From contig JBAZZR010000001.1 in assembly GCA_041658665.1 (NCBI GenBank), forward strand, positions 384,576 through 448,575: a stretch of DNA of 64,000 nt, in the 5' to 3' direction. Under the pieces are notes generated by a model. It saw only the letters and a program-made list of their open reading frames with translations. It ran no database searches and had not been told where the DNA came from. The DNA is from Patescibacteria group bacterium (GTDB lineage: Bacteria > Patescibacteriota > Patescibacteriia > Patescibacteriales > UBA12465). The position numbers were made by a program, and so were the translations under genes. The number at the start of each line of letters is the position of its first letter. Position 1 is the first letter of the stretch. Positions 11,868 to 30,620 of this stretch are shown here, piece after piece.

Positions 11868-11873
11868 CTAAAT

Positions 11874-11906
11874 AAAAATAGAGGCTAATAGCCTCTATTT
11901 TTATTT
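11874..11906 (+). terminator. Intrinsic terminator after the tRNA
   Basis: ATAGAGGC-TAATA-GCCTCTAT hairpin followed by TTTTTATTT. Confidence 0.7.
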
Positions 11907-11907
11907 C

Positions 11908-12088
11908 ATCTTCAGGATTTAGGGATTCGAACAGGTCAGAAGCGAAACAAGTTCGAGACGCTATTTCGAGCGGCGAGAACGCAGGTGAGCGTCGCTAAGC
12001 CCGCCCCGGGCGGGCTTAGCGCTGACCCAGGGCAAGTGAGCGACGCGGAAGCGGAGCGAGCGCGATAATCCCTATCCCCGAGCAGTTT
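11908..12088 (+). other. GC-rich structured element (candidate small RNA or recombination site)
   Basis: No ORF, yet much more GC-rich than its surroundings. 13-bp GC hairpin CGCTAAGCCCGCC-CCG-GGCGGGCTTAGCG (11993-12021). Closing pair TAGGGATT (11920-27) / AATCCCTA (12067-74). Sits between two terminators. Confidence 0.35.
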
Positions 12089-12116
12089 TAAATAGCCCTG
12101 AAACAGGGCTATTTTT
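12089..12116 (+). terminator. Intrinsic terminator closing the GC-rich element
   Basis: ATAGCCCTG-AAA-CAGGGCTAT hairpin followed by TTTTT. Confidence 0.65.
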
Positions 12117-12161
12117 GATATGGAGTTTATTGCCTTAGAACAGTATGTTATAATTAAATAT

Positions 12162-12695
12162 ATGAATGAAGAACTATTTGATATTTATGATGAGCAGAAT
12201 AAGCCACTTGGAATGACAAAATCCAGGTCGATTGTGCATAAAGATGGCTCTTGGCACAGAGTAGTGCATATTTATGTTATTAACGACCAGGGACAATATT
12301 TGGTTCATCTCCGCTCTCCTTATAAAGATTTACACCCTAACTGTTGGGATGCCCGCCTTGGTGGTCATGTTGTTGCTGGCATGGATTACGACCAGACTGC
12401 AATTGAGGAATTAAAGCAGGAGATTGGAATTACAGTGAGCCTTAATAATCTAATTTCCAGTAAAATACACAAAAGTGATAACGGCACCAACAGAGAACAT
12501 AGTAAAATATATTTTTATAAATATAATGGCGAACTAACCGATTTACAATTTAACGATAACGAAGTGGTTGAAGTAAAATGGATGTCCCCTGACGATATCA
12601 TCAAATCCATAGAACAAAATCCACAAATTTGGACGACCACCATAAAAGGTTTCCGGGGCATAAATCTTATTCAAGATTCCTTATGGAACAGATAA
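12162..12695 (+). CDS. NUDIX hydrolase
   Basis: Nudix box GGHVVAGMDYDQTAIEELKQEIGI. The ORF opens at 12120, but that codon abuts the terminator. ATG 12162 follows an extended -10 (TGTTATAAT, 12143-12151), so the mRNA may be near-leaderless. Confidence 0.7.
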   Translation: MNEELFDIYDEQNKPLGMTKSRSIVHKDGSWHRVVHIYVINDQGQYLVHLRSPYKDLHPNCWDARLGGHVVAGMDYDQTAIEELKQEIGITVSLNNLISSKIHKSDNGTNREHSKIYFYKYNGELTDLQFNDNEVVEVKWMSPDDIIKSIEQNPQIWTTTIKGFRGINLIQDSLWNR

Positions 12696-12699
12696 ATAA

Positions 12700-12759
12700 G
12701 TTCCAACTATATCCCAACCTCGGAGCATAGAAAAGACGAGAGTAAAATCTCGTTTTTTT
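12700..12759 (+). repeat. Junction module copy: tRNA-3'-end-like segment plus terminator hairpin
   Basis: GTTCCAACTATATCCCAACCTCGGAGCA differs at 2 of 28 positions from the copy at 14966. Followed by an ACGAGA/TCTCGT hairpin and a T-run. Confidence 0.5.
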
Positions 12760-12826
12760 ATGATAAGTAATTATAGTATGATAAATAACAATAAATATTA
12801 ATGTTAAATAAGCCAAAATATAGTTA

Positions 12827-12855
12827 TTGACATTACTGCTTATATAAGCTAAAAT
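12827..12855 (+). promoter_or_regulatory. Sigma-70-type promoter for the fic gene
   Basis: TTGACA, 17-nt spacer, TAAAAT. Confidence 0.5.
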
Positions 12856-12881
12856 TTACAGTATAATGTTAAATAAATAAA

Positions 12882-14075
12882 ATGACTAATGTAAATAATG
12901 CAAAATTTAAAGATATTCCTTTAAAGCTTTATGACCCCAAATGGGGCAGTCAATTAGCTAATGCTGTTATTGAGCTTGAAAAATTAAGGGTTAAAAAGCT
13001 TGGTGGCCCTGTTCCTCCATATATCTTTTTTCAAATAAAAGATATTTTTCAGATTTTAGAGAGCTTGGGCTCAGCCAGAATTGAAGGAAATCATACTACT
13101 TTAGCTGAATTTGTGGAAAAGATTATTGATAATCCTAACAGGCAAACTAAAATAGAAAAAGATAGGGAGATTTTTAATATTGAAAGAGCAATAGATTTTA
13201 TCGAAAAAAATGTAGATAGTAAAACAAAAATTAGCCGTGCTTTCATCTCGGAAATACACAAAATTTTAGTTGATGGTTTAACCCCACCTCCCGGCGGAGA
13301 AGGTTCAAGATATCCGGGTGAAATGCGCCACGAGAATGTTGTTATTACAAAATCAAATCATATTCCGCCAGAAGCTATAAAAGTTTCTGATTATTTTAAC
13401 GAGTTGATTACATTTATTAATCAGCCTATCGAATCCCAATATCATCTTTTAGCGATAGCCATATCTCATCATCGTATGGCTTGGATACATCCTTTTGATA
13501 ATGGTAATGGACGTTTAGTGAGAATGTTTACTTATGCCCTCCTGATTAAGCAGGGTTTTCAGGTTAAAAGCGGTAGGATTTTGAATCCGACGGCCGTATT
13601 TTGCATGGATAGGGATAAGTATTATGATATGCTAGCGCTAGCTGATTCCGGGGAAGAAGAAAAAACATTGGAATGGTGCTTATACGTTCTAGAGGGACTA
13701 CGAACAGAAATAGAAAAAATTGATAAGCTTCTTAATATTTTTTATATTACCAATAACATTCTTTTACCGATGTTATCCTTTGCCTTCGAAAATCAGTATA
13801 TTACTAAACGTGAACATGAAATTCTTTCGGCACTAGTAAAAAGTAAAAAAATGATTATCAAATCTTCTGATTTAATAAAAATGATTGGGAAGGAATCCCC
13901 TGTACAGCGATCAAGAATATTAAGAAGACTAAAGGAAAAACATATGTTAATTCCTCTAGAAGATAAAGGTAGGGTATATACAATCGGATTTGCCAATAAT
14001 TATCTATTGCGTGGGATGATACATATTCTTGAAAAAAATGATTTTATTCCTTTATCTCTAAATAATAAAAATTAA
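12882..14075 (+). CDS. Fic family protein (AMPylase-type) with C-terminal winged-helix-like domain
   Basis: 397 aa. Canonical Fic motif HPFDNGNGR. N-terminal SARIEG matches the (S/T)xxxE(G/N) auto-inhibitory helix motif. Confidence 0.85.
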   Translation: MTNVNNAKFKDIPLKLYDPKWGSQLANAVIELEKLRVKKLGGPVPPYIFFQIKDIFQILESLGSARIEGNHTTLAEFVEKIIDNPNRQTKIEKDREIFNIERAIDFIEKNVDSKTKISRAFISEIHKILVDGLTPPPGGEGSRYPGEMRHENVVITKSNHIPPEAIKVSDYFNELITFINQPIESQYHLLAIAISHHRMAWIHPFDNGNGRLVRMFTYALLIKQGFQVKSGRILNPTAVFCMDRDKYYDMLALADSGEEEKTLEWCLYVLEGLRTEIEKIDKLLNIFYITNNILLPMLSFAFENQYITKREHEILSALVKSKKMIIKSSDLIKMIGKESPVQRSRILRRLKEKHMLIPLEDKGRVYTIGFANNYLLRGMIHILEKNDFIPLSLNNKN

Positions 14076-14085
14076 AATAAATTAT

Positions 14086-14277
14086 ATGGACAAAGAAACA
14101 TGTAAAAAGTGCGGTAGCGAAAACATTGTTATGGTCGAATATGAGCCAGGAAGTCCGGAGCATTATGATGGCGTTAGCGAAATCCAATGCCGAGATTGTG
14201 GAGCTCGTTTTGGTAGATGGTCAGGTAAAGAATTAGCTAAAGGGGAAATAGAAAAACGTTGGGGAAAGAGCGAATAA
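14086..14277 (+). CDS. Small zinc-ribbon protein
   Basis: 63 aa with two CxxC pairs (CKKCGS...CRDCGA). Starts 10 nt after the fic stop. Confidence 0.55.
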   Translation: MDKETCKKCGSENIVMVEYEPGSPEHYDGVSEIQCRDCGARFGRWSGKELAKGEIEKRWGKSE

Positions 14278-14308
14278 TATAATTATTTCAAATCCAATAT
14301 TGATAAAT

Positions 14309-14338
14309 AAAAAGCACCTTTAAATGAGGTGCTTTTTT
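14309..14338 (+). terminator. Intrinsic terminator
   Basis: GCACCT-N7-AGGTGC hairpin followed by TTTTTT. Confidence 0.7.
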
Positions 14339-14424
14339 GACTTTTCGCTAAAATTATGGGATTATTAAAAAAAGATAAAGAAAAGATAAAATATTTATAA
14401 TTTTTCCAATAACACTTTAGCCTC

Positions 14425-14490
14425 GCTTCGAACATCGTCAGCGACTCCGAGCAAATAGACAAAATAGCACTAATGTGCTATTTTTGTTGT
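14425..14490 (+). repeat. Junction module copy (tRNA-3'-end-like segment plus terminator) with no ORF in front
   Basis: GCTTCGAACATCGTCAGCGACTCCGAGCA, then an AAAATAGCAC-TAAT-GTGCTATTTT hairpin. Confidence 0.5.
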
Positions 14491-14513
14491 ATAAATAAAC
14501 ATTTAATAATTTT

Positions 14514-14909
14514 ATGGATTCAAGTAATTGGTACTCACAATTAGTTAAACCATCTTGGGCGCCACCATCATGGTTATTTGGCCCAGTATGGTCATTCCTG
14601 TACGTTCTTATATTAGTTTCTTTTAGTAAGGTTGTTTTAATGTTTATTGAAAAGAAGATATCATTTCTAGTGTTTTTGCCGTTTATTCTTAATATTATTT
14701 TTAATTTATCTTTTACCTATTTCCAGTTTGGCCTTAAAAGTAATATATTAGCAGCTATAGATATATTGTTTGTATTAGGAACATTAATTTGGGCGATTAT
14801 AGTTATTTATCCTCACTCACACTGGGTGTCTTATGCTCAAATTCCATATCTTCTTTGGGTCGCTTTTGCGACTGTGCTTCAATTAACTATTACATACTTA
14901 AATAAATAA
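14514..14909 (+). CDS. tspO: TspO/MBR family tryptophan-rich sensory protein
   Basis: 131 aa, multi-TM. N-terminal WYSQLVKPSWAPPSWLFGPVWSFLY signature. Confidence 0.75.
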   Translation: MDSSNWYSQLVKPSWAPPSWLFGPVWSFLYVLILVSFSKVVLMFIEKKISFLVFLPFILNIIFNLSFTYFQFGLKSNILAAIDILFVLGTLIWAIIVIYPHSHWVSYAQIPYLLWVAFATVLQLTITYLNK

Positions 14910-14965
14910 AATTTTAATTATAATTAAGAGAATAAAAAAATATATTTCAAAGACTAGTTAAAAAT

Positions 14966-15030
14966 GTTCCAACCATATCTCAACCTCGGAGCAAGTAGAC
15001 AAAATAGCACTTTCGTGCTATTTTTGTTAT
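14966..15030 (+). repeat. Junction module copy (tRNA-3'-end-like segment plus terminator)
   Basis: GTTCCAACCATATCTCAACCTCGGAGCA, then an AAAATAGCAC-TTTC-GTGCTATTTT hairpin with the same stem as the copy at 14461. Confidence 0.5.
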
Positions 15031-15058
15031 TAATGAATTAAATAATATACAAGTTTCT

Positions 15059-15535
15059 ATGGAAGCAACATTACTTAAAATTATAGAAATACTAAAAAAA
15101 TTAAACATAAAGCCCGTAATATATGGGTCCTTTGGAGTCTCCTATTATCTTGGTGACTTTAAGCAGTTTGGCGATCTCGATCTTTTGGTAGAGGATAAGT
15201 TCATTGATAATAATTGGGAAGAATTTAAGACATTTCTTTCGTCACATAACTTTGTTGTAATTAATGAGAAAGAACATGAGTTTTTATTTGATAATTTTAA
15301 GATTGGGTTTGCTAAAAAAAGTATACTAGTAAAAGATGGGATAATTGAAGATTACACAGACCTCGCAAAGTACGGGAAAGTTGATGCCTATACTTTACGG
15401 CCCGAACATTTTTTAGCCGTCTACAGATTTAGCTTAAAGGATGGTTACAGACTCGCCAATAGATTAAAAAAAGACCAGGAGATTATTGATAAAATAATAG
15501 AATATATAAAAGTGAATAAGATAGACGCGGATTAA
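15059..15535 (+). CDS. Putative nucleotidyltransferase-fold protein
   Basis: 158 aa. The N-terminal YGSFGVS...GDLDLLV pattern resembles the GS-x-DxD minimal NTase motif. The assignment is tentative. Confidence 0.4.
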   Translation: MEATLLKIIEILKKLNIKPVIYGSFGVSYYLGDFKQFGDLDLLVEDKFIDNNWEEFKTFLSSHNFVVINEKEHEFLFDNFKIGFAKKSILVKDGIIEDYTDLAKYGKVDAYTLRPEHFLAVYRFSLKDGYRLANRLKKDQEIIDKIIEYIKVNKIDAD

Positions 15536-15679
15536 GTCTTAAATTATCACCTAATCTTAGCCACACTATACTGATAATATTGTTTCATTTGCTAAATAGT
15601 TCATGTGTCGGCTTAAGCCTTTGCTATGCTCGAACCTTTATATTTATTTTGTTATAATAAGAATATATTTGAATAAAAA

Positions 15680-17191
15680 ATGAAAAAATACGATTACGTT
15701 ATTATTGGCGCAGGTATAGGGGGCTTAACCGTGGCATCATTATTGGCTAAATCAGGTAAGTCTGTTTGTATTGTTGAGGGTAATAAAGTTTTGGGTGGTT
15801 ATGCCCATACACTTAAAAAAGGTAAATATTCTTTTTGTCACGAAGTTCAATATCTAATGGGCTGTCAGTCTGATGGGCCAATGATCCGCTTCTTTAAGCA
15901 GATCGGTATTGCCAACGATATAAAATTCAACGAGCTCAATCAGAAGGCTTTTGATTTAGTTAGTTTTGATAATTTGAAAGTAGGCATACCGCACGGCCTT
16001 GGCAGTTTTGAAAAAGAAATTATTGGGATGTATTTAAAGTATACCAAGCAGATAAAAAAGTATTTTAATGTTATTGAAACAATTTTTAACACTTCCGACG
16101 CTTATGAAAAAATCCTTGAAACGAATGATGTTTTGCTGCATCCTATAAAACATCGCTCGATTATAAAATATAAAAATTACACACTTCACGATTTTTTTGA
16201 AGAACTAAAATTGCCTCAAGAATTGAGAGCCGTGTTGGCTGGTCAGGCAGGAAATTTATGTGCCAGCCCTAAACAAGTGTCACTTTTAATGCACTCAGCT
16301 ATGCAGGTTGCTTATTGCAAGAGTGCCCATTTTCCTAAAAAAGGTATGGAGTTTGTTGTGAACAAGATCGCCGAAAAAATAACTAAGAATAAGAATAACA
16401 AGATAATTACTGATTGTCTTGTTAAAAAAATTAATTGTAATAAAGACAGAATAATCTCTATTGAAACTGTAAAGGGCACGATTTTCGGCGATAATTTTAT
16501 TTCCAATATCGACCCTAAGCAGACTTATAATTTAATTGATGATAGGAGGTTATCTTGCAAACTACATAAAAAGTTTAATTACGATTATACTAATTCGGCT
16601 TTTACGATTTATCTTGGCTTGAAAAATGTTAATTTGAAAAAATATGGTTTTGGTAAGATGAACATTTGGCATCACTCAACCTTTGATATTGATAAAGAGT
16701 TTAGGGATGAGATTAAAAAGGATGACTTTTCTCATCCTTGGCTGTTCATTTCAACGCCTTCAATGTTAACTGAAAAGGGTATAGTCTGTCCCAAAGGCCA
16801 TCATACAATGGAGATATTGACATTTGTTGATTACGATTACTTTAAAACATTGTACGATAAAGATAAAAATAAGTTTGAATACTTGAAAAATCACATCTAT
16901 AATCACATTCTTGATATTATCGATCAGCATTATCTGCCTAATATCCGAAAATATATAGATGAAAAAATTGTGCATACGCCAATCGACATAGAAAAACTGC
17001 TTCATTCCCCTAAGGGTAACGTTTATGGGTGTAGTTTAACCCCTGACAATTATAGTCTTGGTCGAATAAATTCAAATACTTATTTTGAGAATATGCACTT
17101 TGTTGGGGCAGCTTCTTCTTACCCTGGTGTAATGGGAGTTACTATCGGAGGAATGGATTTGTTTAAAAAATTAAGTAGTGAAAATAATTGA
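15680..17191 (+). CDS. FAD/NAD(P)-dependent oxidoreductase, phytoene desaturase (CrtI)-like family
   Basis: 503 aa. N-terminal dinucleotide-binding motif DYVIIGAGIGGLTVASLLAKSGKSVCIVE. Length and C-terminal GAASSYPG motif fit the CrtI-like family. Confidence 0.75.
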   Translation: MKKYDYVIIGAGIGGLTVASLLAKSGKSVCIVEGNKVLGGYAHTLKKGKYSFCHEVQYLMGCQSDGPMIRFFKQIGIANDIKFNELNQKAFDLVSFDNLKVGIPHGLGSFEKEIIGMYLKYTKQIKKYFNVIETIFNTSDAYEKILETNDVLLHPIKHRSIIKYKNYTLHDFFEELKLPQELRAVLAGQAGNLCASPKQVSLLMHSAMQVAYCKSAHFPKKGMEFVVNKIAEKITKNKNNKIITDCLVKKINCNKDRIISIETVKGTIFGDNFISNIDPKQTYNLIDDRRLSCKLHKKFNYDYTNSAFTIYLGLKNVNLKKYGFGKMNIWHHSTFDIDKEFRDEIKKDDFSHPWLFISTPSMLTEKGIVCPKGHHTMEILTFVDYDYFKTLYDKDKNKFEYLKNHIYNHILDIIDQHYLPNIRKYIDEKIVHTPIDIEKLLHSPKGNVYGCSLTPDNYSLGRINSNTYFENMHFVGAASSYPGVMGVTIGGMDLFKKLSSENN

Positions 17192-17350
17192 TATTGAAAA
17201 TATTTGTTTTTAACATCTTCGAAGAGGATTCGAAGTTATTAGGTTGACCAAAAATAATTATATTTATATTAAACATGAAAGAAATTGTGCCCTTGCTTTG
17301 TATTAGAAGCAAAGGTCGAGTAAAATAATAAATTAATAAATTTTAAGTAT

Positions 17351-17758
17351 ATGAAAAAATCTATATTAAGTTTGGGTGTTTTAGCAATCGTTATTTTGGT
17401 CGGATTATCTGCTAGTGCTGTTTTAGCTTATCAGGGAAATCCTACAATTAAAGGGCCAAACTACTCGGCTGATCGTCATGCAGCCATGGAACAAGCTTTT
17501 GAAAATCATGACTATAATGCTTGGAAAAGTCTGATGACTGGAAATGGCCGAGTTAGGCAAGTTGTAAATAGTGAAAATTTTGCTAAGTTTGCCGAAGCTC
17601 ATGAATTAACTGAACAAGGCAAAAATGCCGAAGCACAAAAAATTCGTCAAGATCTAGGTTTAGGTTTAAATAATGGTTCCGGCAACGGATGTGGCCTCGG
17701 GAATGGCAGTGGTAAGGGTGGCTGCAAAATGAACGCTGGTTGCGGTTTAAATCGCTAA
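17351..17758 (+). CDS. Secreted small protein with Gly/Cys-rich C-terminus
   Basis: 135 aa. Signal peptide (…SASAVLA/YQ), a helical middle, and a C-terminal GSGNGCGLGNGSGKGGCKMNAGCG tail. Confidence 0.55.
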   Translation: MKKSILSLGVLAIVILVGLSASAVLAYQGNPTIKGPNYSADRHAAMEQAFENHDYNAWKSLMTGNGRVRQVVNSENFAKFAEAHELTEQGKNAEAQKIRQDLGLGLNNGSGNGCGLGNGSGKGGCKMNAGCGLNR

Positions 17759-17841
17759 AACATTTTGTTTTATTATTCACTAGGCCTCGGTTAATTCGGG
17801 GCCTGGTGTATAGTTGGGTGTGATTTGTTATAATTGATACT

Positions 17842-18384
17842 ATGAGTAAAAATATTATACTTTCCGATGAAGAAATCATTGAAAGAGTCCGATCGGAAGA
17901 TCAGGAGCTTTATTCTCTTATAATTGAAAGATATCAGGATAAGCTTTTACGTTACGCGACAAATTTAATTCAAGACGAACACAACGCCGCCGATATAGTA
18001 CAAGAAGCCTTTATTAAAGCATTTATAAATTTACGAGGGTTTAATACGAAAAAGAAATTTTCTAGCTGGATTTATCGCATCGTTCATAATGAATCAATAA
18101 ATATAGCTAAAAAATATCAAAGAGAAGTGCCAATCTTAGAAAATGTAGATTTTAAAAGTGAAGAAAATATTGAACTTAATTTTGAAAAAAAGGAAATTAT
18201 GGAAAAAGTTGAAAAATGCTTTGCAAAGATGCCGTTATTATACGCTGAGCCACTTCGTTTATTTTATATTGATGAAAAATCTTATGAAGAAATAAGCGAT
18301 ATTTTAAGATTGCCAATGGGGACGGTCGCAACCCGGGTTAATAGAGCAAAAATATTAATTAAACATATATGCCAAAAGAACTAA
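17842..18384 (+). CDS. ECF-type RNA polymerase sigma factor
   Basis: 180 aa. Region 2 (DIVQEAFIKAF...WIYRIVHNE) and region 4 (SYEEISDILRLPMGTVATRVNRAK) are present. Confidence 0.8.
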   Translation: MSKNIILSDEEIIERVRSEDQELYSLIIERYQDKLLRYATNLIQDEHNAADIVQEAFIKAFINLRGFNTKKKFSSWIYRIVHNESINIAKKYQREVPILENVDFKSEENIELNFEKKEIMEKVEKCFAKMPLLYAEPLRLFYIDEKSYEEISDILRLPMGTVATRVNRAKILIKHICQKN

Positions 18385-18830
18385 AACATATAACTAATGA
18401 TATAATGGGCGAAATTCGTCATGGGAAATTAAAAATGCGTCCCAAGATTTATTTTATTGTTGGCTCGATTCTTGTTTTTATAAGTTTAATATTATCAGCG
18501 TTAAGTTCTATTTTTCTTTTTGGCTTAATAAGATTCTCCTTACGCTCTCATGGTCCAATGGAGCAGTATCGCTGGGAGCAGCTTTTAGCTAGTTTTCCTT
18601 GGTGGACAGTAATTTTTGCTTTTTTAGGACTGTTAGTGGGAATTTGGCTACTTCGTAAATATGATTTTTCTTATAAAATAGATTTTAAAATATTAATAAT
18701 CGGGTTTGTGGCGGTTATAATTATTACCGGGTACTTAGTAGATGCCATTGGTCTAAATGATATATTTTCTCGTCAGGGATGTATGAATAGAATTTATGGT
18801 AGAAATAATTGTTCTCGGATTATTAAGTAA
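18369..18830 (+). CDS. Membrane protein, possible anti-sigma partner
   Basis: 153 aa with about 4 TM helices. Overlaps the ECF sigma stop by 16 nt, suggesting translational coupling. No recognisable anti-sigma domain. Confidence 0.45.
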   Translation: MPKELKHITNDIMGEIRHGKLKMRPKIYFIVGSILVFISLILSALSSIFLFGLIRFSLRSHGPMEQYRWEQLLASFPWWTVIFAFLGLLVGIWLLRKYDFSYKIDFKILIIGFVAVIIITGYLVDAIGLNDIFSRQGCMNRIYGRNNCSRIIK

Positions 18831-18876
18831 ATTTACTAAAATATAATGAAAATTTTTTAAAAATAATATAAATATT

Positions 18877-23262: not shown

Positions 23263-23284
23263 ATTACTGTTCTTTTATCGTTTG

Positions 23285-23314: not shown

Positions 23315-23329
23315 ATATAAACTAAAAAT

Positions 23330-23668: not shown

Positions 23669-23934
23669 TTACTAAAAAAGTTCTCCCTGAATATTTCCAA
23701 GATATTCTAGACGGAAAAAAGAAATATGAGCTAAGACTTAATGATTTTGAGATTGAGCCAGGTGACACTTTAATTTTAGAAGAGTATACTTCGACTGATC
23801 CAAACGTAAGACAGGCTACTGGCAGAGTAATTGAAAAACAAGTCACCTATCTAAGAAAATTTAAGTTACAAGATTTGTGGTGGAGTGAAAAAGATGTTAA
23901 AGAGAAGGGGGTTCAAATAATTTCCTTTAAATAA
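23656..23934 (+). CDS. ASCH/DUF3850-like domain protein
   Basis: 92 aa. VLPEYFQDILDGKKKYELRLNDFEIEPGDTLILEEY matches my recollection of the DUF3850 (ASCH-like) pattern. 13-nt overlap with the previous ORF. Confidence 0.55.
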   Translation: MSRIITKKVLPEYFQDILDGKKKYELRLNDFEIEPGDTLILEEYTSTDPNVRQATGRVIEKQVTYLRKFKLQDLWWSEKDVKEKGVQIISFK

Positions 23935-24028
23935 TATAACCATTTAATATTTGAGTATTATTAAACATTTTTAAATTTTTACTTATAGTTAGTCCTCCAA
24001 TCCAAAGCTATAAACACGTTTAGTATAT

Positions 24029-24074
24029 GGAGCTCCGATAAAAAATAGACTAATATTAGTTTATTTTTTATTTT
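24029..24074 (+). repeat. Junction module copy (tRNA acceptor-end-like GGAGCT plus terminator)
   Basis: GGAGCTCCGATAAAAAATAGACTAATATTAGTTTATTTTTTATTTT parallels GGGAGCTAAATAAAAATAGAGGCTAATAGCCTCTATTTTTATTTC at the true tRNA end. Confidence 0.4.
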
Positions 24075-24078
24075 ATTA

Positions 24079-24107
24079 TTGACATATATTAAATTTAGTT
24101 GTAAAAT
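24079..24107 (+). promoter_or_regulatory. Sigma-70-type promoter for the 211-aa orphan
   Basis: TTGACA, 17-nt spacer, TAAAAT. Confidence 0.5.
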
Positions 24108-24192
24108 TTTATGATGCTTAATTATATGGCATAACCTAAATCTGTCAGGTAAAGTACAGACTAATAGTAATTTAAAAAAAGAGCTGTGTGCG

Positions 24193-24828
24193 ATGGGAAA
24201 CATTGTAAGCAGTCGTAAGTTAAGTGTTCATAAAGAACACGAAGTTCTTCAGAAGTTAGAGGATGGTGGGTTGAATGATCGAATTGCTCAGTACATTATT
24301 GAGAGCAAGGAAAATAAAATTGCTAAAAAATTAATTTCTCGGGCGGAGGAATTGATCATTGAAGAAACGGTATTTAAAATAATACCTTTTGTTTCGTTTT
24401 CTTCTCTTGAAGAAGGGAAGGAATTCACAATAATCCACCCGAAAATTAAAAGCGGTGAGTTCTTGGCCCAGCTGCCTTTGATGGATGCTCATGGAATGGA
24501 CGTGATTTTACTTAAATGTAGTTATCGGCATCTTGCAAATTCTATGTATCAAAAATTTCGTTTTATTTCCGCTGCTCATTTAGTAGTTTTGGGCAAGAAT
24601 TATCCTGAAGTAGTAAAAGTATGCAGACATATTATGTCTCTTGACCCTAGTTGCCATTTAGGAGGAACCCCTAACAAACAATATGGGATGAAACATAGGG
24701 AATTCCTCACTCTTAATTATTTTGATGTTTACCAACATTTAGTAAATCCGGGTTCTACTCTTTCATTTGAAAGGGAAAAATTTGGCGATGATGCTAATGT
24801 TTGGTTCGCAGTGACTCCAATTAGTTAG
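24193..24828 (+). CDS. Hypothetical protein (orphan 1)
   Basis: 211-aa ORF with its own promoter and terminator. No motif recognised. The N-terminus is MGNIVSS. Confidence 0.6.
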   Translation: MGNIVSSRKLSVHKEHEVLQKLEDGGLNDRIAQYIIESKENKIAKKLISRAEELIIEETVFKIIPFVSFSSLEEGKEFTIIHPKIKSGEFLAQLPLMDAHGMDVILLKCSYRHLANSMYQKFRFISAAHLVVLGKNYPEVVKVCRHIMSLDPSCHLGGTPNKQYGMKHREFLTLNYFDVYQHLVNPGSTLSFEREKFGDDANVWFAVTPIS

Positions 24829-24836
24829 CCTAGAAG

Positions 24837-24870
24837 GTCCTAATCAGCGTATATGATTAGGACTTTCTTC
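24837..24870 (+). terminator. Intrinsic terminator
   Basis: GTCCTAATC-N9-GATTAGGAC hairpin followed by TTTCTTC. Confidence 0.6.
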
Positions 24871-24978
24871 AAATAACCGGACTCTCAAAACTAGCTTTAA
24901 TTAATGGATAGATATCATAAATTCGAGAAATATATGATTTTTTATTTCAACAAGTAAATTCAACACTCTCGAACCAAA

Positions 24979-25007
24979 TTGACAAAAATATAGTTCCATG
25001 CTATATT
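24979..25007 (+). promoter_or_regulatory. Reiterated promoter module, copy A
   Basis: TTGACAAAAATATAGTTCCATGCTATATT: TTGACA, 17-nt spacer, extended -10 TGCTATATT, then a T-run. Confidence 0.55.
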
Positions 25008-25142
25008 TTTTTCATTATATAGTTATTTAATAAAAAATGTCCGATTAGTTTATCGGTTAGTATTTATTGAATTATCTAAGCTCCTCTAATCTGGGCGTTT
25101 AGACAGTTCAATAAATATTAATTAAATTAATCGGAGTTAATA

Positions 25143-26738
25143 ATGGAAAATAGTGTAGTTAGTTCCTATTCGGATTTGCTTGATAAGACGAATCTGATAT
25201 TTGTTAAGCTTTTGGAGTGGGAAAGTAAGGAAGATATTGAGCCAAAATATTATATGCAGCGGCTTGAAGAGAATCCTGTCCAGACTATGAGCTTAAGAAT
25301 AGTTCCCAGCGCAGTAGTCTTTTTTCTAAAAAGATTATTTTGTATTTTAACCGGCATGATTGCCGAGAAAGCGATGTTGGAGATCGATAAAAAAACTGAG
25401 ACAAGATTATTAAAAAATATGGTCTGGGCAGGAGTTTATGCCCTAGATCTATTAAAGAGTAGTTTATCTCAGTACAGTGGCATAAAATGTTTGTCAGTAT
25501 CTAATAATAAATTGACCTGCACCTTTAAGTCTCCTTTAGACCTGGGTGCGGTTAAAGACATTCTTAGCGATCCTTATTCGAGTATTAATCAATTAGTGGT
25601 TGAAAGACGAGAGGAGAATAGAATTCTTAATTATTATTTGATGATTGACGGACGGGACGTCCTAGTAGTCTCGAATTATAGTATTAGTTTCATATATAAA
25701 GTCACGTCCGATGATTGGGAAGAATATCTACAGATGTTTGTAGAGATTATCGCTCGTGTTCATCGCGATTTACTTTATCGAGAAGGTCTTAGAAACGTAT
25801 TTATGAATACCTATAATGCCTTCTATCGTTTAATGTCTCCTGAAATGTTCAATGATAGTGAATTAACGTCATGGTTTGAAAGCGTTAGGAAACTGGTACT
25901 TGCAGGAGGAATACAGAAAGATAAGTCATTTTCTGAAACAAAAAAATCGAGACTTTATCATAAAACTGATAAACTCTATCGATTGGTACAACCACTGTCT
26001 CATCTAAACTATATAGTCGTCTGTCCGGACAAGAAGGAACTCTATATTAGTTTTAGACCATTTTTTGATTTTAAGGCGATTGGAGAATATTTAGGAAAAA
26101 CCAATTTGTCGCTAGATCAAAGAAAAGAAGACGTGGAGTACAAAAAGGTTCTAAAGAAAGGAGCCGGGCGTCGAAAATCTGAAGGGATTATACATGTTAC
26201 ATTCAATGATGTTATTAATCAGAAGAAACAAAGGATCGCTTCGTTCGACGGCCAATCGATTATTGTTTTGTATTTAGCTGATCAAGAAATTTTTGCAGAA
26301 GGACTCCAATTATTTAATTATATATACTATAATTGGATTTATTATACCTCCTGGATTCCAACCGCGGATGTTCCGCATTCTGACTTAGATAGTGTTGATA
26401 GAACAGTAATTACCAATATTGATATTTTATTTCATATTTATTCAACATTTTTGGGCGTTATCTTAAGTAAAGAATATTTTCGCTCAGATCGTATGAATAC
26501 CTTAACGACGAAAGAATGGTTGATTAATTTTTTAAGTATTGATCCCGCCCTTCGTTATGAAGAGAAAATGTTGCATTTATTACAGTTCATGAAAGACAAA
26601 ATTAATTTGCAGGAATTTTTAAGTCATACGACGGGGGATAGTTTCGAAGATGATGAAGCTAGAAAAAGGTTAATCGATTTATATGCTAAATTGTGTTCGC
26701 AATTATCGCTTACTCAGGCGTATGTAAATTCATTGTGA
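25143..26738 (+). CDS. Hypothetical protein (orphan 2)
   Basis: 531-aa ORF. No recognisable catalytic motif. Apparent internal duplication (see findings). Confidence 0.65.
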   Translation: MENSVVSSYSDLLDKTNLIFVKLLEWESKEDIEPKYYMQRLEENPVQTMSLRIVPSAVVFFLKRLFCILTGMIAEKAMLEIDKKTETRLLKNMVWAGVYALDLLKSSLSQYSGIKCLSVSNNKLTCTFKSPLDLGAVKDILSDPYSSINQLVVERREENRILNYYLMIDGRDVLVVSNYSISFIYKVTSDDWEEYLQMFVEIIARVHRDLLYREGLRNVFMNTYNAFYRLMSPEMFNDSELTSWFESVRKLVLAGGIQKDKSFSETKKSRLYHKTDKLYRLVQPLSHLNYIVVCPDKKELYISFRPFFDFKAIGEYLGKTNLSLDQRKEDVEYKKVLKKGAGRRKSEGIIHVTFNDVINQKKQRIASFDGQSIIVLYLADQEIFAEGLQLFNYIYYNWIYYTSWIPTADVPHSDLDSVDRTVITNIDILFHIYSTFLGVILSKEYFRSDRMNTLTTKEWLINFLSIDPALRYEEKMLHLLQFMKDKINLQEFLSHTTGDSFEDDEARKRLIDLYAKLCSQLSLTQAYVNSL

Positions 26739-26750
26739 GTATTTTTTATG

Positions 26751-26781
26751 GCTCCTGTCAGTTTTTTGACAGGAGTTTTTT
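26751..26781 (+). terminator. Intrinsic terminator
   Basis: CTCCTGTCA-N6-TGACAGGAG hairpin followed by TTTTTT. Confidence 0.75.
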
Positions 26782-26829
26782 AATATATGTGTATATTCCT
26801 TATTATATTTGATAGAATTTCGACGTGAT

Positions 26830-26858
26830 TTGACAGAATTATATTAGTATGATACATT
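26830..26858 (+). promoter_or_regulatory. Reiterated promoter module, copy D
   Basis: TTGACAGAATTATATTAGTATGATACATT, followed by the conserved TTATTACTTTAACAA leader. Confidence 0.5.
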
Positions 26859-26880
26859 AATTTATTACTTTAACAAACGT

Positions 26881-26928
26881 TTATAACCATCTTTTTGAGT
26901 ATTGAGATGCTTAGAAAGATGGTTATAA
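26881..26928 (+). promoter_or_regulatory. 5'-UTR hairpin (14-bp perfect stem) ahead of orphan 3
   Basis: TTATAACCATCTTT (26881-94) pairs perfectly with AAAGATGGTTATAA (26915-28). It lies between the promoter and the AAGGAG RBS. Confidence 0.45.
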
Positions 26929-26974
26929 GTTATATAAATAAAATAATTCATAAAATAATTCAAGGAGATCTAAA

Positions 26975-28168
26975 ATGAAACTAGTAGCTAATAGTGGCGC
27001 GACTGGTAATGCAACGCTAGCAATCAGATGGTGTTTGGAGGATGAGGAAATTTCGGCATTGCGTGAATTAGTAATTACTGATCCTTACATTTTATTTGTT
27101 GTTGTTCATAAGCATGAAAATGTTGATCGGAAACTGGTTCGTCTCAACGAACTAATGGTTTTTTTGCCTCTTAATAATCCAGGTGATAATACGGTGTTCG
27201 CTACGATTGTTTGGCATAAGACTAAAAAGAAATTGGACGAATGGTGTCTGGAGAGGAATAAATATGGGTGTTATAAAACTGATTTTTATGACATTGAAGA
27301 TGATTCATTACGACATGGCGATTTAGGAAAAACCCGGATGGAGGTTAATGTTTCATCGGAATTTTTTGCTAAAGAACCGCCGGCCTGGGAAAAAAAGTGG
27401 GTTAATTTATGGTTTGGTGGGAAAAGGGCGCGTAATAGTTGCGATTATGGTAAACGCCGTATGCTGGCTTATTCGGTTCAGCCGATTCCGGTTCTAGTGT
27501 TTATAGTATTTATTACCATTTTTCGTTTTTTGGCAGCGGCCTTTTGGATTTTAATTCGGACTAAGACTAAGGTTGATTTACGGCCTATTATTCACCCTTT
27601 TAAATACGAAAGCGATGATGTTTGGTTTTACGCTACATCAGCCCGGAATTTTTATGAAAAGGATAAAGATGGTAAAGATAGGGCAACAGCAGTCTGGCTT
27701 TATCACCCCGTAACTATCATCGTTATGGCAGTAGTACTTTTTTATATTACCATAGATCAACCCAGGTTATTTGTGAGTCTACATATTCCTTCGGTCTGGT
27801 GGGCATATATTCTATTAAGTCCCATCTTTACTACTCTGTTAGCTATTGGAGCCATTGTTGTCGCGGTAGTTATCGTCGGACTAGTAAAACTAGGTTTCTT
27901 GATTTTTAGCCGGTTTTTTCCCTCTAAAAGTGAAGAACAATCGCAGGAACTTCTCGAAGAAAAAACGGCTGAGCAAATAAAAGCCGAGCAGGAAGAAGCG
28001 GATCTTAAATTAAAGCTTAAATTAGTTGAAGATAATTTGACCTGGCTCGCCTGTAATCAAGAACAACCGGTTCCGAAACTCAGCGCTCTGCCTAGAGAAA
28101 AACGAACTGTGTATTTACACTTTTTAGATTTAAAATCAAAATGGTGTAAACCCTTCCCCGGAGTCTAA
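26975..28168 (+). CDS. Hypothetical membrane protein (orphan 3)
   Basis: 397 aa. Soluble N-terminal domain of about 170 aa, about 4 TM helices, and an acidic coiled-coil C-terminus. AAGGAG RBS. Confidence 0.65.
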   Translation: MKLVANSGATGNATLAIRWCLEDEEISALRELVITDPYILFVVVHKHENVDRKLVRLNELMVFLPLNNPGDNTVFATIVWHKTKKKLDEWCLERNKYGCYKTDFYDIEDDSLRHGDLGKTRMEVNVSSEFFAKEPPAWEKKWVNLWFGGKRARNSCDYGKRRMLAYSVQPIPVLVFIVFITIFRFLAAAFWILIRTKTKVDLRPIIHPFKYESDDVWFYATSARNFYEKDKDGKDRATAVWLYHPVTIIVMAVVLFYITIDQPRLFVSLHIPSVWWAYILLSPIFTTLLAIGAIVVAVVIVGLVKLGFLIFSRFFPSKSEEQSQELLEEKTAEQIKAEQEEADLKLKLKLVEDNLTWLACNQEQPVPKLSALPREKRTVYLHFLDLKSKWCKPFPGV

Positions 28169-28193
28169 TCGGAGTCAAGTGAATTCTTATCTC

Positions 28194-28227
28194 AAATCCC
28201 AGACTGATCAAAAGTCTGGGATTTTTA
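28194..28227 (+). terminator. Intrinsic terminator
   Basis: AATCCCAGACT-N7-AGTCTGGGATT hairpin followed by a T-run. Confidence 0.75.
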
Positions 28228-28284
28228 TTTGATTTATGCTATATTTAAAGTGGTTTACTAATTTAAACTAAATAGTTTTAATTC

Positions 28285-28310
28285 TTTTACAAAATGCTTT
28301 TAGGGATGGA
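28285..28310. repeat. Inverted repeat, left arm
   Basis: TTTTACAAAATGCTTTTAGGGATGGA. Its reverse complement matches 28730-28755 at 25 of 26 positions. Confidence 0.6.
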
Positions 28311-28340
28311 ATAAATAATAAACTGTACTCCAAAAAGGAG

Positions 28341-28676
28341 GTGATTATATTGGGTCTAAAGTATGAATCGATTAACATTTTTCGTTCAAATTTACCGGCC
28401 ATAATTCATCCGTACAATGTCCGCGTTATCGCCGTTCGTCCTTGGTGGCATTTCTTTTTGTTTACAAACGGCCAAACCGAGGCGATATTTCTTAAGCTGA
28501 ATTGTCTAGATAAAGAATCTGTGCTTTTAGGAATTACGGCCGCTCTTAAGAAGGAAGGAGGTATTTACGCCAAAACTTTTCTTAAATGTATTAAACACGT
28601 TACCATTTCTCAGGGACGTGAAACCAACCTAAAAATTGACTGGTCCGAAAAAGATCAGTGCCTACAACTTGAATAG
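28341..28676 (+). CDS. Hypothetical protein (orphan 4)
   Basis: 111-aa ORF (GTG in the track; in-frame TTG at 28350) preceded by a strong AAGGAGG. Bracketed by the 26-bp inverted repeats. Confidence 0.5.
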   Translation: MIILGLKYESINIFRSNLPAIIHPYNVRVIAVRPWWHFFLFTNGQTEAIFLKLNCLDKESVLLGITAALKKEGGIYAKTFLKCIKHVTISQGRETNLKIDWSEKDQCLQLE

Positions 28677-28729
28677 CGTTTCTCGTTATCAAGAATGGGA
28701 GCTTATATTTCCGTTCCATCTATAAGCTC

Positions 28730-28755
28730 TCCATCCCCAAAAGCATTTTGTAAAA
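28730..28755. repeat. Inverted repeat, right arm
   Basis: TCCATCCCCAAAAGCATTTTGTAAAA. It ends 2 nt before the -35 of promoter copy B. Confidence 0.6.
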
Positions 28756-28757
28756 AA

Positions 28758-28804
28758 TTGACAGAAATATAGCCTAATGCTATATTTTTTTATTACTTTA
28801 ACAA
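28758..28804 (+). promoter_or_regulatory. Reiterated promoter/leader module, copy B
   Basis: TTGACAGAAATATAGCCTAATGCTATATTTTTTTATTACTTTAACAA. 5 mismatches in 53 nt relative to copy C. Confidence 0.55.
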
Positions 28805-28836
28805 TCAATTTTATTTAATTAATAGAGGAGTCACTC

Positions 28837-29202
28837 ATGTTAACGATTGCTGTTATTTTTATATCTACCGCTCTTTTACTCTACTCTACGGCTATTTGGT
28901 CGGAAAGAATTATAGGGGTGTTAAAATTATGGATGATAAGAATTTTTATTTCGGCTTTTGTCTGTGACTTATTAGCGACGTCTCTGATGGCTTATCAAGC
29001 GACAACTAGGTTCGAGCTTAATGCCCATAGTCGCTCGGGTTATATAGCCTTAGGTATCATGGGGTTACATTTTATTTGGGCCATTATCGCCATAAGATGC
29101 AAAGGTCAAGCGGAAAAATATTTTCATCGTTTCTCCCTATTGGCTTGGCTCATTTGGTTAGCCGCTTTTATTAGCGGTGTGCCTAAAGTTCATTTTTTTT
29201 AA
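28837..29202 (+). CDS. Small 4-TM membrane protein (possibly TIGR03987/HsmA-like)
   Basis: 121 aa with four hydrophobic helices. The family name is from recollection only. Confidence 0.5.
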   Translation: MLTIAVIFISTALLLYSTAIWSERIIGVLKLWMIRIFISAFVCDLLATSLMAYQATTRFELNAHSRSGYIALGIMGLHFIWAIIAIRCKGQAEKYFHRFSLLAWLIWLAAFISGVPKVHFF

Positions 29203-29205
29203 CAG

Positions 29206-29237
29206 AAAATCCTCGTCAGCTGATGGGGATTTTTTTA
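29206..29237 (+). terminator. Intrinsic terminator
   Basis: ATCCTC-N12-GGGGAT hairpin (one G.U pair) followed by TTTTTTT. Confidence 0.55.
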
Positions 29238-29353
29238 TTTAGATTATTTAATTTCTAGTTTCTCAATTTAAAGTTTTTGCTTCGTCGATTAATGTCCCCG
29301 TCCTATTTTTAATCATTAGTACCTTTAAGAAATTGAAAAAAATTGAATAAAAA

Positions 29354-29400
29354 TTGACAAAAATATGGCATAATGCTATATTTTTTTATTACCTTAACAA
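29354..29400 (+). promoter_or_regulatory. Reiterated promoter/leader module, copy C
   Basis: TTGACAAAAATATGGCATAATGCTATATTTTTTTATTACCTTAACAA. Confidence 0.55.
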
Positions 29401-29438
29401 TTAATTAACCAATAAACATAAGTGTAGCAAAGGAGTTC

Positions 29439-30560
29439 ATGATGAATCAGAAAATCAAAGATTTTTTTCAGAGATTTTTAAATCCGGCTGGAATCAGAAT
29501 TAATGGGAAGCGTCCTTGGGATCTTCAAGTCCATAATGATGGTTTCTATGACCGTGTCTTAAAACAAGGTTCCTTGGGTTTAGGGGAGTCTTATATGGAT
29601 AGCTGGTGGGACTGTGAGTCTTTAGACGAATTTTTTAATCGGGTTATTAAAGCTGACTTGGGGAGCAAAATACGTTGGGATCTTAAAAGTTATCTGTTTG
29701 CTCTCAAGAACATATTAATTAATCAGCAAAGAAAGAGTAAGGCGCGTGAAGTTGGCCAAAGTCATTATGACTTAGGGAATGATTTATATGCCGCTATGCT
29801 TGACCCTTCTTTGTCTTATAGCTGTGGCTATTGGTCTAAAGCACAAAATTTAGCGCAAGCTCAAGAAGCTAAACTTGAGCTTATTTGTCGCAAGTTAAAT
29901 TTAAAAGCGGGAGATGATGTTTTAGATATCGGCGGCGGCTGGGGTAATTTTGCTAGATATGCTGCCAAAAAATACGGCGTTCATGTTGACGTCGTAACAG
30001 TTTCTCGAAAACAAGTGGAGTTAGGCAAAAAATTATGTGCCGATTTAGACGTCTGTTTTTTATTGCAAGACTACCGCGAGATTCAGGGCTTCTATAATCA
30101 TATAATCTCCGTCGGAATGATTGAACACGTAGGGTATAAAAATTATCGCACTTATATGCAGACTGTGGCCGATAGTTTAAAAGACGATGGGTTATTTCTC
30201 CTCCATACTATTGGGAGGAATAAATCTACCAGATTTAATGACCGGTGGATAGCGAAATATAGTTTTGTTAATTCTATGTTACCGTCGATGAGACAACTAT
30301 CTAAAGCTATAGAAAATTTATTCGTTCTTGAAGACCTGCATAGCTTTGGAGCGGATTACGATAGAACGCTTATGGTTTGGTTTGCTAATTTCGAAAAAAA
30401 TTGGCCGGATCTAAGAGAAAAATATGGCGATAGGTTTTATCGTCAATGGAAATATTATCTACTTTCTTGTGCGGGGGCTTTCCGGGCTCGAAAGAATCAG
30501 GTTTGGCAGATCGTTTTATCTAAAAATGGTGTGCCCGGCGGATACAGATCTGTTCGTTAA
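29439..30560 (+). CDS. cfa: Cyclopropane-fatty-acyl-phospholipid synthase
   Basis: 373 aa, colinear with E. coli Cfa. Shared strings include LGLGESYMD.WW, GQSHYDLGNDL, VLDIGGGWG, LLQDYR, GMIEHVG, LLHTIG, FGADYDRTLM.W and CAGAFRAR. Confidence 0.9.
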   Translation: MMNQKIKDFFQRFLNPAGIRINGKRPWDLQVHNDGFYDRVLKQGSLGLGESYMDSWWDCESLDEFFNRVIKADLGSKIRWDLKSYLFALKNILINQQRKSKAREVGQSHYDLGNDLYAAMLDPSLSYSCGYWSKAQNLAQAQEAKLELICRKLNLKAGDDVLDIGGGWGNFARYAAKKYGVHVDVVTVSRKQVELGKKLCADLDVCFLLQDYREIQGFYNHIISVGMIEHVGYKNYRTYMQTVADSLKDDGLFLLHTIGRNKSTRFNDRWIAKYSFVNSMLPSMRQLSKAIENLFVLEDLHSFGADYDRTLMVWFANFEKNWPDLREKYGDRFYRQWKYYLLSCAGAFRARKNQVWQIVLSKNGVPGGYRSVR

Positions 30561-30587
30561 TTATTAGTCGGTTCTTAATTATTAATC

Positions 30588-30620
30588 AGAGGCGTTTGGA
30601 TTTCCAGACGCCTTCTTTTT
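30588..30620 (+). terminator. Intrinsic terminator after cfa
   Basis: GGCGTTTGG-N5-CCAGACGCC hairpin followed by TTCTTTTT. Confidence 0.75.

Follow-up and report, generated by a model that had tools for sequence, protein, structure and literature searches.

A variable region at an intron-split tRNA-Asn gene of a Patescibacterium is probably composite and carries no detected recombinase gene

Introduction

Patescibacteria, also known as the candidate phyla radiation (CPR), have tiny genomes, are not culturable alone and are thought to be limited in gene exchange, and their acquisition of accessory and defence genes is poorly understood. We analyzed a window of 64,000 nucleotides from a Patescibacteria group bacterium (GenBank assembly GCA_041658665.1, contig JBAZZR010000001.1, positions 384,576 to 448,575 of the forward strand; coordinates below are those of the window), in which an 18.7-kb block of mostly accessory genes lies between a tRNA-Asn gene and an efflux operon. 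The locus raises the question of how such a collection of genes was assembled at this place, and by what machinery. An earlier interpretation made from the letters of the sequence (below, the sequence-only reading) had proposed one island lacking an integrase, whose mobility had been supplied in trans, had been lost or had used a mechanism not recognizable from its genes. Our own interpretation, held with moderate confidence, sees in the block a composite and additive variable region that has no recombinase of its own and is anchored where the intron-split tRNA-Asn gene of a Falkowbacteria-like Patescibacterium has its 3′ end. The locus would represent a tRNA-anchored hot spot in the CPR where small promoter-bearing units, including a SoFic-like gene, are exchanged across lineages. 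Comparison sequences are cited as L003, L004 and so on; the features of the locus are listed in Table 1.

Results

Variable DNA Follows an Intron-Split tRNA-Asn Gene

ARAGORN calls no tRNA in the window, because a group I intron splits the tRNA-Asn gene. The intron is matched by Rfam (Intron_gpI, positions 11521–11822, 86 bits), in-silico removal of positions 11599–11829 makes ARAGORN call a canonical tRNA-Asn(GTT), and the intron-less tRNA-Asn orthologue of L096 aligns with both exons. All this agrees with a genuine tRNA 3′ end at position 11867, and therefore the block begins there, as the sequence-only reading had placed it. The intron is 231 nt long, has no open reading frame (ORF) and is inserted in the anticodon loop after U35. 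The gene is likewise intron-split in L113 and L112, and intron-less in L096, L003, and L004. Logan contigs from a second sample break on either side of the intron, L002 ending at about 11592 and L084 beginning at 11839. A 2020 preprint lists 21 types of bacterial tRNA that are split by introns.

The window lies on an 822-kb metagenome contig (ENA ERZ27247322). By RpoD, the closest relatives are L003 (a metagenome-assembled genome of Candidatus Falkowbacteria), L004, and L096 (a Joint Genome Institute, JGI, contig with RpoD 90% and rpoD DNA 82% identical to the window). The left flank, comprising ruvX, recO, two class II aminoacyl-tRNA synthetase (aaRS) genes, scpAB, a penicillin-binding protein gene, dnaG, and rpoD, keeps its gene order in L003 and L004 as far as rpoD. 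The L003 contig stops at tRNA-Asn; L004 has 9.7 kb of unrelated genes between rpoD and tRNA-Asn. Scanning viral contigs with the tRNA 3′ core returned two contigs, L112 (98.4% identical to the window over 64 nt, covering the intron end and exon 2) and L113 (82% over 448 nt, covering the promoter, the split tRNA gene, and the terminator).

The window, L112, L113, and L096 all part ways right after ...GGGAGC. In L096, genes unrelated to the block follow, and in L112 (positions 1–8373) and L113 (1571–11063) the tRNA gene is followed by integrated inovirus-like elements that encode a large serine recombinase, a Zot-like ATPase, a REP_ORF2-G2P Rep protein, and a Laminin_G_3 protein. The element of L113 is 9.5 kb long and is flanked by a 12-bp repeat, TTTTTTCTTTGA, located in the T-tract of the terminator. 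These three relatives can be aligned with the window up to the final bases of the tRNA, and the DNA that comes after it is unrelated. The sole independent support comes from a second-sample assembly that has the same arrangement over positions 11839–23431.

L004 (CAZMYU010000013.1) is labelled as an uncultured gammaproteobacterium, with RpoD 80% and collinearity from ruvX to rpoD; probably it comes from the CPR and was mis-binned or mislabelled.

Units of the Block Are Shared One by One With Different Genomes

Several units of the block recur in other genomes with 81–92% DNA identity, sharp ends, and unrelated contexts. For the Fic unit, the DNA identity is 89.5% with L085 and 84% with L088, and it is limited to 12771/12778–14131/14084, that is, to the promoter and the gene; the homology starts at one point shared by the window, L085, and L088. 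The encoded protein matches the SoFic profile of PADLOC (PDLC03963, E = 1.2e-43, residues 54–366 against profile positions 54–349 of 361) and contains the Pfam Fic domain, and hence it is classified as SoFic-like, with a predicted anti-phage role.

The Fic protein has 5598 homologs, including variants with 90–97% identity. Relatives with 70–82% identity come from Falkowbacteria, Moraniibacteria, Magasanikbacteria, Paceibacterota, and Liptonbacteria, as well as from records labelled Nanoarchaeia and Nitrotoga. Compared to these 70–82% across CPR lineages, RpoD is only about 56–58% identical to its counterparts in Moraniibacteria and Saccharibacteria. The contexts of Fic also differ. In L088, a 90%-identical Fic copy has a tyrosine integrase with Rep on one side and, on the other, a large serine recombinase accompanied by a type III restriction–modification (R-M) system, and in L107 (4965–6357) and L110 (6001–7384), whose hosts are Falkowbacteria and Magasanikbacteria, Fic and a 61–63-aa zinc-ribbon ORF form a pair within type I R-M operons, between hsdS and hsdM/hsdR. 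This small ORF beside Fic shows weak similarity to Lar-like (restriction alleviation) proteins.

A second instance is found at 23046–23937, where three units with abutting homology ends are each shared with another genome (Table 1).

A Decayed tRNA-Asn End Repeats Inside the Block

The tRNA-Asn 3′ end, together with the DNA that follows it, is repeated within the block, the two copies being 77% identical over 99 nt (blastn within the window, E = 9e-13). The right copy sits in the intergenic region 19774–19973 and includes about 35 nt beyond the hairpin. An nhmmer profile of the 99-nt repeat finds just these two copies in the window. No exact or near-exact (up to three mismatches) second copy of the tRNA 3′ end is found, the decayed copy requiring gapped blastn, and mismatch-tolerant and profile searches find no tRNA-end repeat near 30.6 kb. 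The direct repeat brackets 7.9 kb (11.87–19.8 kb), the most deviant part of the block, which holds the Nudix gene, Fic with the 63-aa ORF, TspO, the 158-aa and CrtI-like proteins, and the extracytoplasmic function (ECF) sigma factor module.

The repeat runs into the start of a structured element whose GC content is about 60%, against 36% for the genome, and whose fold z-score is −3.0 against shuffled sequences; three copies of it share 38 consensus pairs, 10 compensatory. A truncated copy (19879–19930) lies within the 19.8-kb repeat. In L090, L097, and L100, every copy comes after the box described below and its hairpin. The final 18 nt of the element are the same as the last 18 nt of a tRNA-Gln found in L102. 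No Rfam family matches it even at E ≤ 5. The element may be a noncoding RNA, perhaps a new one, or a structured DNA or recombination site.

A 28-nt Box Marks Junctions Between Unrelated DNA Segments

Three copies of a 28-nt box, GTTCCAACTATATCCCAACCTCGGAGCA, are present in the block. An exact-pattern scan finds the box in 15 JGI metagenome loci; it is absent from 16 other loci, and neither the box nor the GC-rich element occurs in the viral contigs. The box is nearly invariant and the DNA on either side of it is variable: the plus-strand genes whose stop codons lie 10–25 nt before it are unrelated, and the hairpins after it differ. Co-oriented arrays of two to four boxes are seen in L090, L092, L094, L095, and L100, and in most loci with arrays the boxes are spaced by 0.3–1.7 kb. 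Genes in the box neighbourhoods elsewhere encode methylases, SAVED, GmrSD, and KAP NTPase proteins.

In two pairs of related sequences, homology breaks exactly at the box. L096 and L099 are 97.9% identical over 1016 nt, ending at the final base of the box, and share nothing beyond it, Dcm and Vsr following in L096 and a KAP NTPase in L099; the homology between L090 and L103 likewise ends at the box edge. The reverse pattern, with shared downstream and unshared upstream DNA, is observed for L090 and L097 and for the group of L092, L093, L096, and the window. The box, being 28 nt long, is shorter than the assembly k-mer, and therefore chimeric assembly would be an unlikely cause of these breakpoints.

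Some candidate explanations of the box were discarded. The idea that it is the 3′ terminus of Nudix units, or of some other conserved gene upstream of it, was rejected; a 387-aa ORF of L092 considered as an integrase proved to be a radical SAM protein; and an IS200-like TnpA near the L092 box was judged to be an independent GC-rich insertion. The latter region (L092, oriented, 330–1010) encodes an IS200-type Y1 transposase with GC-rich subterminal hairpins about 200 nt upstream of the box and is foreign to its AT-rich surroundings.

The properties of the box invite an alternative to composite, additive growth, namely that box and hairpin are the site of a specific recombinase, e.g., the L088-type tyrosine integrase, which would move promoter-bearing single-gene cassettes, the window being an array without the recombinase. 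The invariance of the box among the 15 loci, its variable flanks, the co-oriented arrays, the breakpoints at its very edge, and the alternative defence cargo at one and the same junction are all consistent with such a system, and in L088 the box with its hairpin abuts the 3′ end of a tyrosine integrase gene. However, this is a single adjacency, and no second box bounds the L088 integrase element; the box is not palindromic; the Fic unit ends without boxes in L085, L088, L107, and L110; and 28 nt of identity could equally serve RecA-dependent exchange. We consider this alternative unlikely. The box may be the site of a dedicated recombinase, or its 28 nt may simply anchor homologous recombination.

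Composition and Gene Layout

The sequence-only reading had described the block as more AT-rich and CpG-poor than both flanks. This description is confirmed. The observed/expected CpG ratio (CpG o/e) is 1.11 in the block vs. 1.62 in the left and 1.41 in the right flank, and the GC content is 0.341 vs. 0.380 and 0.368, respectively; the block is the minimum for both GC and CpG among all windows of the same size. When genes of the block and the flanks are compared, the difference is significant for CpG o/e (p = 2e-5), marginal for GC (p = 0.046), and not significant for GC3. Synonymous codons are affected as well: arginine AGR vs. CGN usage differs significantly in the block (Fisher p = 2e-14), the CCG share of proline codons falls from 43–54% to 15–17% in the AT-rich parts of the block, A-ending codons are more frequent, NCG codons are depleted, and NCA codons are enriched. 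The shift is patchy, with strongly deviant, low-GC segments at 12882–19773 and 23330–26738, and segments of flank-like GC at 19974–22845 and 26975–30560.

Other AT-rich patches of the window, at 36–39 and 50–53 kb, were rejected as similar islands, as they hold GreA, DksA-like, HU, and sigma-factor genes. In one of them (52061–53614), the gene of another ECF-like factor of the sigma-70 family precedes that of a DUF5667 protein, an arrangement resembling the sigma/anti-sigma layout of the ECF module in the block.

The block had also been described as mostly single genes, each with its own promoter and hairpin. The concentration of promoters and hairpins and the long gaps agree with this, except for four small operons: Fic with the 63-aa ORF; the 135-aa protein, ECF sigma, anti-sigma, and YgaP-like genes; the histidine phosphatase with the 467/476-aa protein; and PNPOx with ASCH. 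On the plus strand of the window, T[TA]GACA-N16-18-TAnnnT matches 10 times, always in intergenic DNA and always within 12.8–29.4 kb, and sites matching at 11 out of 12 promoter positions number seven in the block vs. one in a control of equal size. Intergenic gaps are longer in the block, with a median of 164 nt vs. 62 nt outside it. Terminator-like hairpins number 25 in the block vs. 11.1 ± 4.1 expected, and 22 vs. 16.3 ± 3.9 expected in a control region. The genes of the block are all co-oriented.

Gene Content and Absence of Mobility Genes

The predicted accessory or stress-related content is largely confirmed by Pfam (NUDIX, Fic, TspO, FAD amine-oxidase/CrtI-like, ECF sigma, YgaP-like transmembrane, His_Phos_1, PNPOx_N, DUF3850/ASCH, and CMAS families), the NTase fold being a sub-threshold match (E = 0.0011). 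As regards defence, PADLOC reports SoFic (1e-43) and a weak Nudix/PDC-S07 match (2e-6) among 10 proteins scanned. We infer that the cargo (SoFic-like Fic, Nudix, TspO, the ECF module, cyclopropane-fatty-acyl-phospholipid synthase Cfa, and the orphans) would serve as niche and defence equipment, self-promoted and insulated by hairpins.

The sequence-only reading had seen no integrase, transposase, phage, or conjugation gene in the block. Pfam, PHROGs, PADLOC, and PDB sequence searches detect no recombinase, transposase, phage, or conjugation gene in it, and the orphans of 24193–29202 have no match in Pfam, PHROG, PADLOC, or PDB, the last searched with the sequences of four of them. The search for a cryptic recombinase among the orphans was extended to structure: with an AlphaFold2 model of the 531-aa family (predicted local distance difference test, pLDDT, 59), Foldseek finds no PDB fold at E ≤ 0.001, this fold search relying on one usable model, since the single-sequence model of the 211-aa orphan (pLDDT 33) is unusable and the 397-aa orphan is unmodelled.

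The family of the 531-aa orphan (25143–26738) has five members. A homolog of it that is accompanied by a PIF1 helicase may form with it a two-gene system; the copy in the window has no helicase partner. The Methyltransf_24-like gene, the first one after the 19.8-kb repeat, has 24 distant homologs only and is useless as an empty-site probe. The ECF module has protein homologs with 50–67% identity in Moraniibacteria L007; its recent transfer is not supported, as its divergence matches that of dnaG and rpoD, with no excess similarity.

The 58-nt promoter-like repeat of the right part of the block is 82–91% identical across genomes (L085, 17133; L088, 21088; L094, oriented, 2164), and in L094 it directly follows a box. 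The palindromic spacer may act as an operator, or else as the stem of a terminator.

The gene cfa, noted earlier for an island-type promoter and intermediate composition, indeed has both: its promoter shares 91% identity with the promoter of the gene before it, and its CpG o/e is intermediate (Table 1). It is the probable last gene of the variable block.

In the left flank, the two adjacent class II aaRS genes (1340–4056; tRNA_anti-codon and tRNA-synt_2 domains) are paralogs with about 27–29% mutual identity, kept in L003 and L004; presumably they encode AspRS plus AsnRS or a non-discriminating pair.

Table 1. Features of the variable block and its immediate flanks in the 64,000-nt window.
Feature	Position	Strand	Description
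tRNA-Asn(GUU), split gene	11565–11867	+	Exon 1, 11565–11598; intron, 11599–11829; exon 2, 11830–11867; left anchor of the block
Left direct-repeat copy	11849–11945	+	Last ~20 nt of tRNA-Asn, terminator hairpin 11870–11906, start of GC-rich element
GC-rich structured element, ~175 nt	11908–12086	+	Own terminator hairpin 12090–12114; last 18 nt are a tRNA-Gln 3′ end
NUDIX hydrolase gene	12120–12695	+	Pfam NUDIX, 5e-14
Box copy 1 with hairpin	12700–12758 (box 12700–12727)	+	Profile E = 4.5e-10; 93–94% identical to L088 (3872–3930), L096, L092
Portable Fic unit	12771–14277	+	TTGACA promoter 12827; SoFic-like Fic 12882–14075; 63-aa zinc-ribbon ORF 14086–14277
TspO/MBR membrane protein gene	14514–14909	+	Pfam, 2e-28; TAGACA-N17-TATTTT palindromic promoter/hairpin 14456–14484
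Box copy 2 with promoter-like hairpin	14966–15024 (box 14966–14993)	+	Profile E = 4.7e-8; hairpin also in L088, L090, L095
158-aa possible NTase-fold gene	15059–15535	+	Pfam match below threshold
503-aa FAD amine-oxidase/CrtI-like gene	15680–17191	+	Pfam
ECF module	17351–19773	+	Secreted 135-aa protein, ECF sigma, membrane anti-sigma-like and YgaP-like membrane proteins; Pfam
Right direct-repeat copy	19805–19899	+	Decayed tRNA-Asn 3′ end TCGAATCTGACCTTGGGAGC, hairpin, truncated start of GC-rich element
Normal-GC segment	19974–22845	+	Rare Methyltransf_24-like gene, histidine phosphatase, 467/476-aa secreted orphan
Box copy 3, degenerate, with promoter/hairpin	22871–22931 (box 22871–22898)	+	E = 0.0012; TTGACA-N18-TATATT
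Small membrane ORF unit	23046–23293	+	DNA 92% identical to L100
PNPOx-like unit	23286–23650	+	DNA 88% identical to L090
DUF3850/ASCH unit	23654–23937	+	DNA 81% identical to L085
Orphans	24193–29202	+	211 aa, 531 aa, 397-aa membrane, 111 aa, 121-aa membrane
58-nt promoter repeat, four copies	24974, 26825, 28753, 29349 (24974–29406)	+	TTGACA-N17-TATATT with palindromic spacer, then TTTTTTATTACYTTAACAAT; repeat search
cfa, cyclopropane-fatty-acyl-phospholipid synthase	29439–30560	+	Pfam CMAS, 2e-80; CpG o/e 1.21
Right flank, MacA-like adaptor and MacB-type ABC efflux operon	30709–35852	+	NCBIfam; flank-like composition

Discussion

How the Block May Have Grown

A composite, additive region could have arisen if successive insertions beside tRNA-Asn made the block grow and pushed older modules outward, with single units also being exchanged at box/hairpin junctions. 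The recombination would be provided in trans by recombinases of transient elements, or would proceed homologously at junction repeats after DNA uptake. Among the options that the sequence-only reading had left for the mobility of the block, supply in trans or loss is the best supported one, because close relatives bear recombinase-encoding elements at the same tRNA (L112, L113); the context of Fic in L088 points the same way.

Several observations weigh against this interpretation. The ECF module is 69–70% identical in DNA to that of Moraniibacteria L007, dnaG and rpoD being 66–71% identical, and a 57% homolog of the 531-aa orphan in L105 (8629–11617) is found among housekeeping genes, directly after a PIF1-family helicase gene; hence, part of the block may be vertically inherited. 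The direct repeat, with its 77% identity, is old, and it is the single significant partial-tRNA repeat in the block; weak tRNA-like boxes, examined as further decayed copies of tRNA-Asn, were rejected as not significant (best E = 1.3). An integrase is adjacent in one out of about 12 box contexts, no integrase relics are seen beside the boxes, and tblastn with three recombinase or Rep proteins of related elements finds no match in the window. GC3 per gene does not distinguish the block from its flanks. The right boundary (30560–30709) is a tentative one, placed by composition and by the promoter that cfa shares with the gene before it. Finally, all comparisons involve metagenome assemblies, and the relative nearest by RpoD with usable downstream sequence, L096, is only 90% identical.

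Some of the same facts could be explained by a native stretch of weakly expressed, fast-evolving genes of the lineage, with composition caused by low expression and membrane proteins, and with boxes, hairpins, and promoters being ordinary motifs. Indeed, all detectable homologs come from Patescibacteria-type genomes, the ECF module diverges as housekeeping genes do, GC3 is not significantly shifted, a GtrA-like membrane gene of the syntenic left flank (7365–7829) is also low in GC and CpG, and a stop codon always shortly precedes the box, with a terminator-like hairpin following it. Nevertheless, ordinary descent does not account for a Fic protein conserved far better across lineages than RpoD, for shared units with sharp ends in unrelated contexts, for unrelated content after the tRNA in three relatives, for exact breakpoints at the box in two pairs, or for the Arg AGR and NCG/NCA shifts, which are independent of GC3; as an account of the block, it is improbable.

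Least probable is the single 18.7-kb island of the sequence-only reading, taken as integrated once at tRNA-Asn and later stripped of its integrase. In its favour, the block starts precisely where the tRNA gene ends, no stretch of equal size in the window is as low in GC and CpG, no recombinase remains, and all genes are co-oriented. Against it, the att-like repeat lies inside the block at 19.8 kb with none near 30.6 kb, the composition is patchy with two flank-like GC segments, units are shared individually with different genomes at differing identities, the ECF module bears no sign of recent transfer, and no traces of an integrase pseudogene are seen.

Comparison With Known Systems

Considered as a composite, additive region, the block has features in common with several known systems. 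As in Islander-type tRNA islands (PMC4383910), an intact tRNA stands at one end, a partial copy of its 3′ end is displaced (here to 19.8 kb), the accessory cargo is deviant, and the content of the site varies. Unlike these islands, the block has no detected integrase. Its repeat has decayed to 77% identity, runs into the terminator and the downstream element, and bounds 7.9 kb out of 18.7 kb, the remainder being a mosaic without a tRNA-derived end.

In Prochlorococcus tycheposon islands, serial integrations at tRNAs push older elements inward, leaving partial tRNAs and degenerate elements (bioRxiv 10.1101/2020.12.28.424599). Here, too, a streamlined genome has a tRNA-proximal variable island with a partial tRNA and degenerated elements, and the recombinase and the replication module belong to transient elements, as in L088, L112, and L113. 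The differences are the host, a Patescibacterium; the elements at this tRNA, which are inovirus-like (Zot, Rep) with a large serine recombinase, the recombinase of tycheposons being of the tyrosine type; and the presence of the non-tRNA 28-nt box and the GC-rich structured element.

In integrons and clusters of attC sites lacking integron-integrases (CALINs), attC sites are imperfect palindromes of 57–141 nt with RYYYAAC...GTTRRRY cores and the R″–L″/L′–R′ arrangement, and promoter-less cassettes are served by a common Pc promoter, with IntI and attI. The block resembles them in co-oriented, mostly single-gene units, a recurring site after the stop codon, reordering of shared units, and an array without integrase. 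It differs in that the box is conserved in sequence, non-palindromic, and without an inverse partner or cores, the hairpins being, by inspection, plain A-tract/T-tract stems; in that its units have promoters of their own with 11 out of 12 matching positions; and in that it is anchored at a tRNA and has neither IntI nor attI. No relevant literature on CPR cassette arrays was found. Speculatively, the box GTTCCAACTATATCCCAACCTCGGAGCA with its hairpin (and, in some loci, the ~175-nt element) might be an undescribed cassette-exchange site of Patescibacteria, tRNA-acceptor-like and served in trans by a recombinase from small Rep-plus-integrase elements, hence an analogue of the integron attC; we regard this as a low-probability proposal.

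Cis-mobilizable elements (CIMEs), related to ICESt1-type elements of Streptococcus, are att-flanked segments without recombination genes. The 11.87–19.8 kb segment is similarly flanked by att-like repeats and has no recombinase, and thus would move only with help in trans; its repeats, in distinction to those of CIMEs, are decayed.

Additive flexible islands of marine bacteria such as Alteromonas (PMC4898812) are also adjacent to tRNAs and gain or lose small cassettes, but they usually keep integrases or integron remnants, and the evidence here comes from distant relatives rather than from strains of one species. Relative to the Prochlorococcus islands, the present case has three new features: its hosts belong to another group, inovirus-like elements carrying serine recombinases are integrated at the same tRNA, and breakpoints fall exactly at a non-tRNA box. 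If the box is a dedicated recombination site, the cassette system would be a new one and might be used as a genetic tool in the CPR; if it is not, the locus is still a clear case, within the CPR, of the additive-island architecture of Prochlorococcus and marine heterotrophs.

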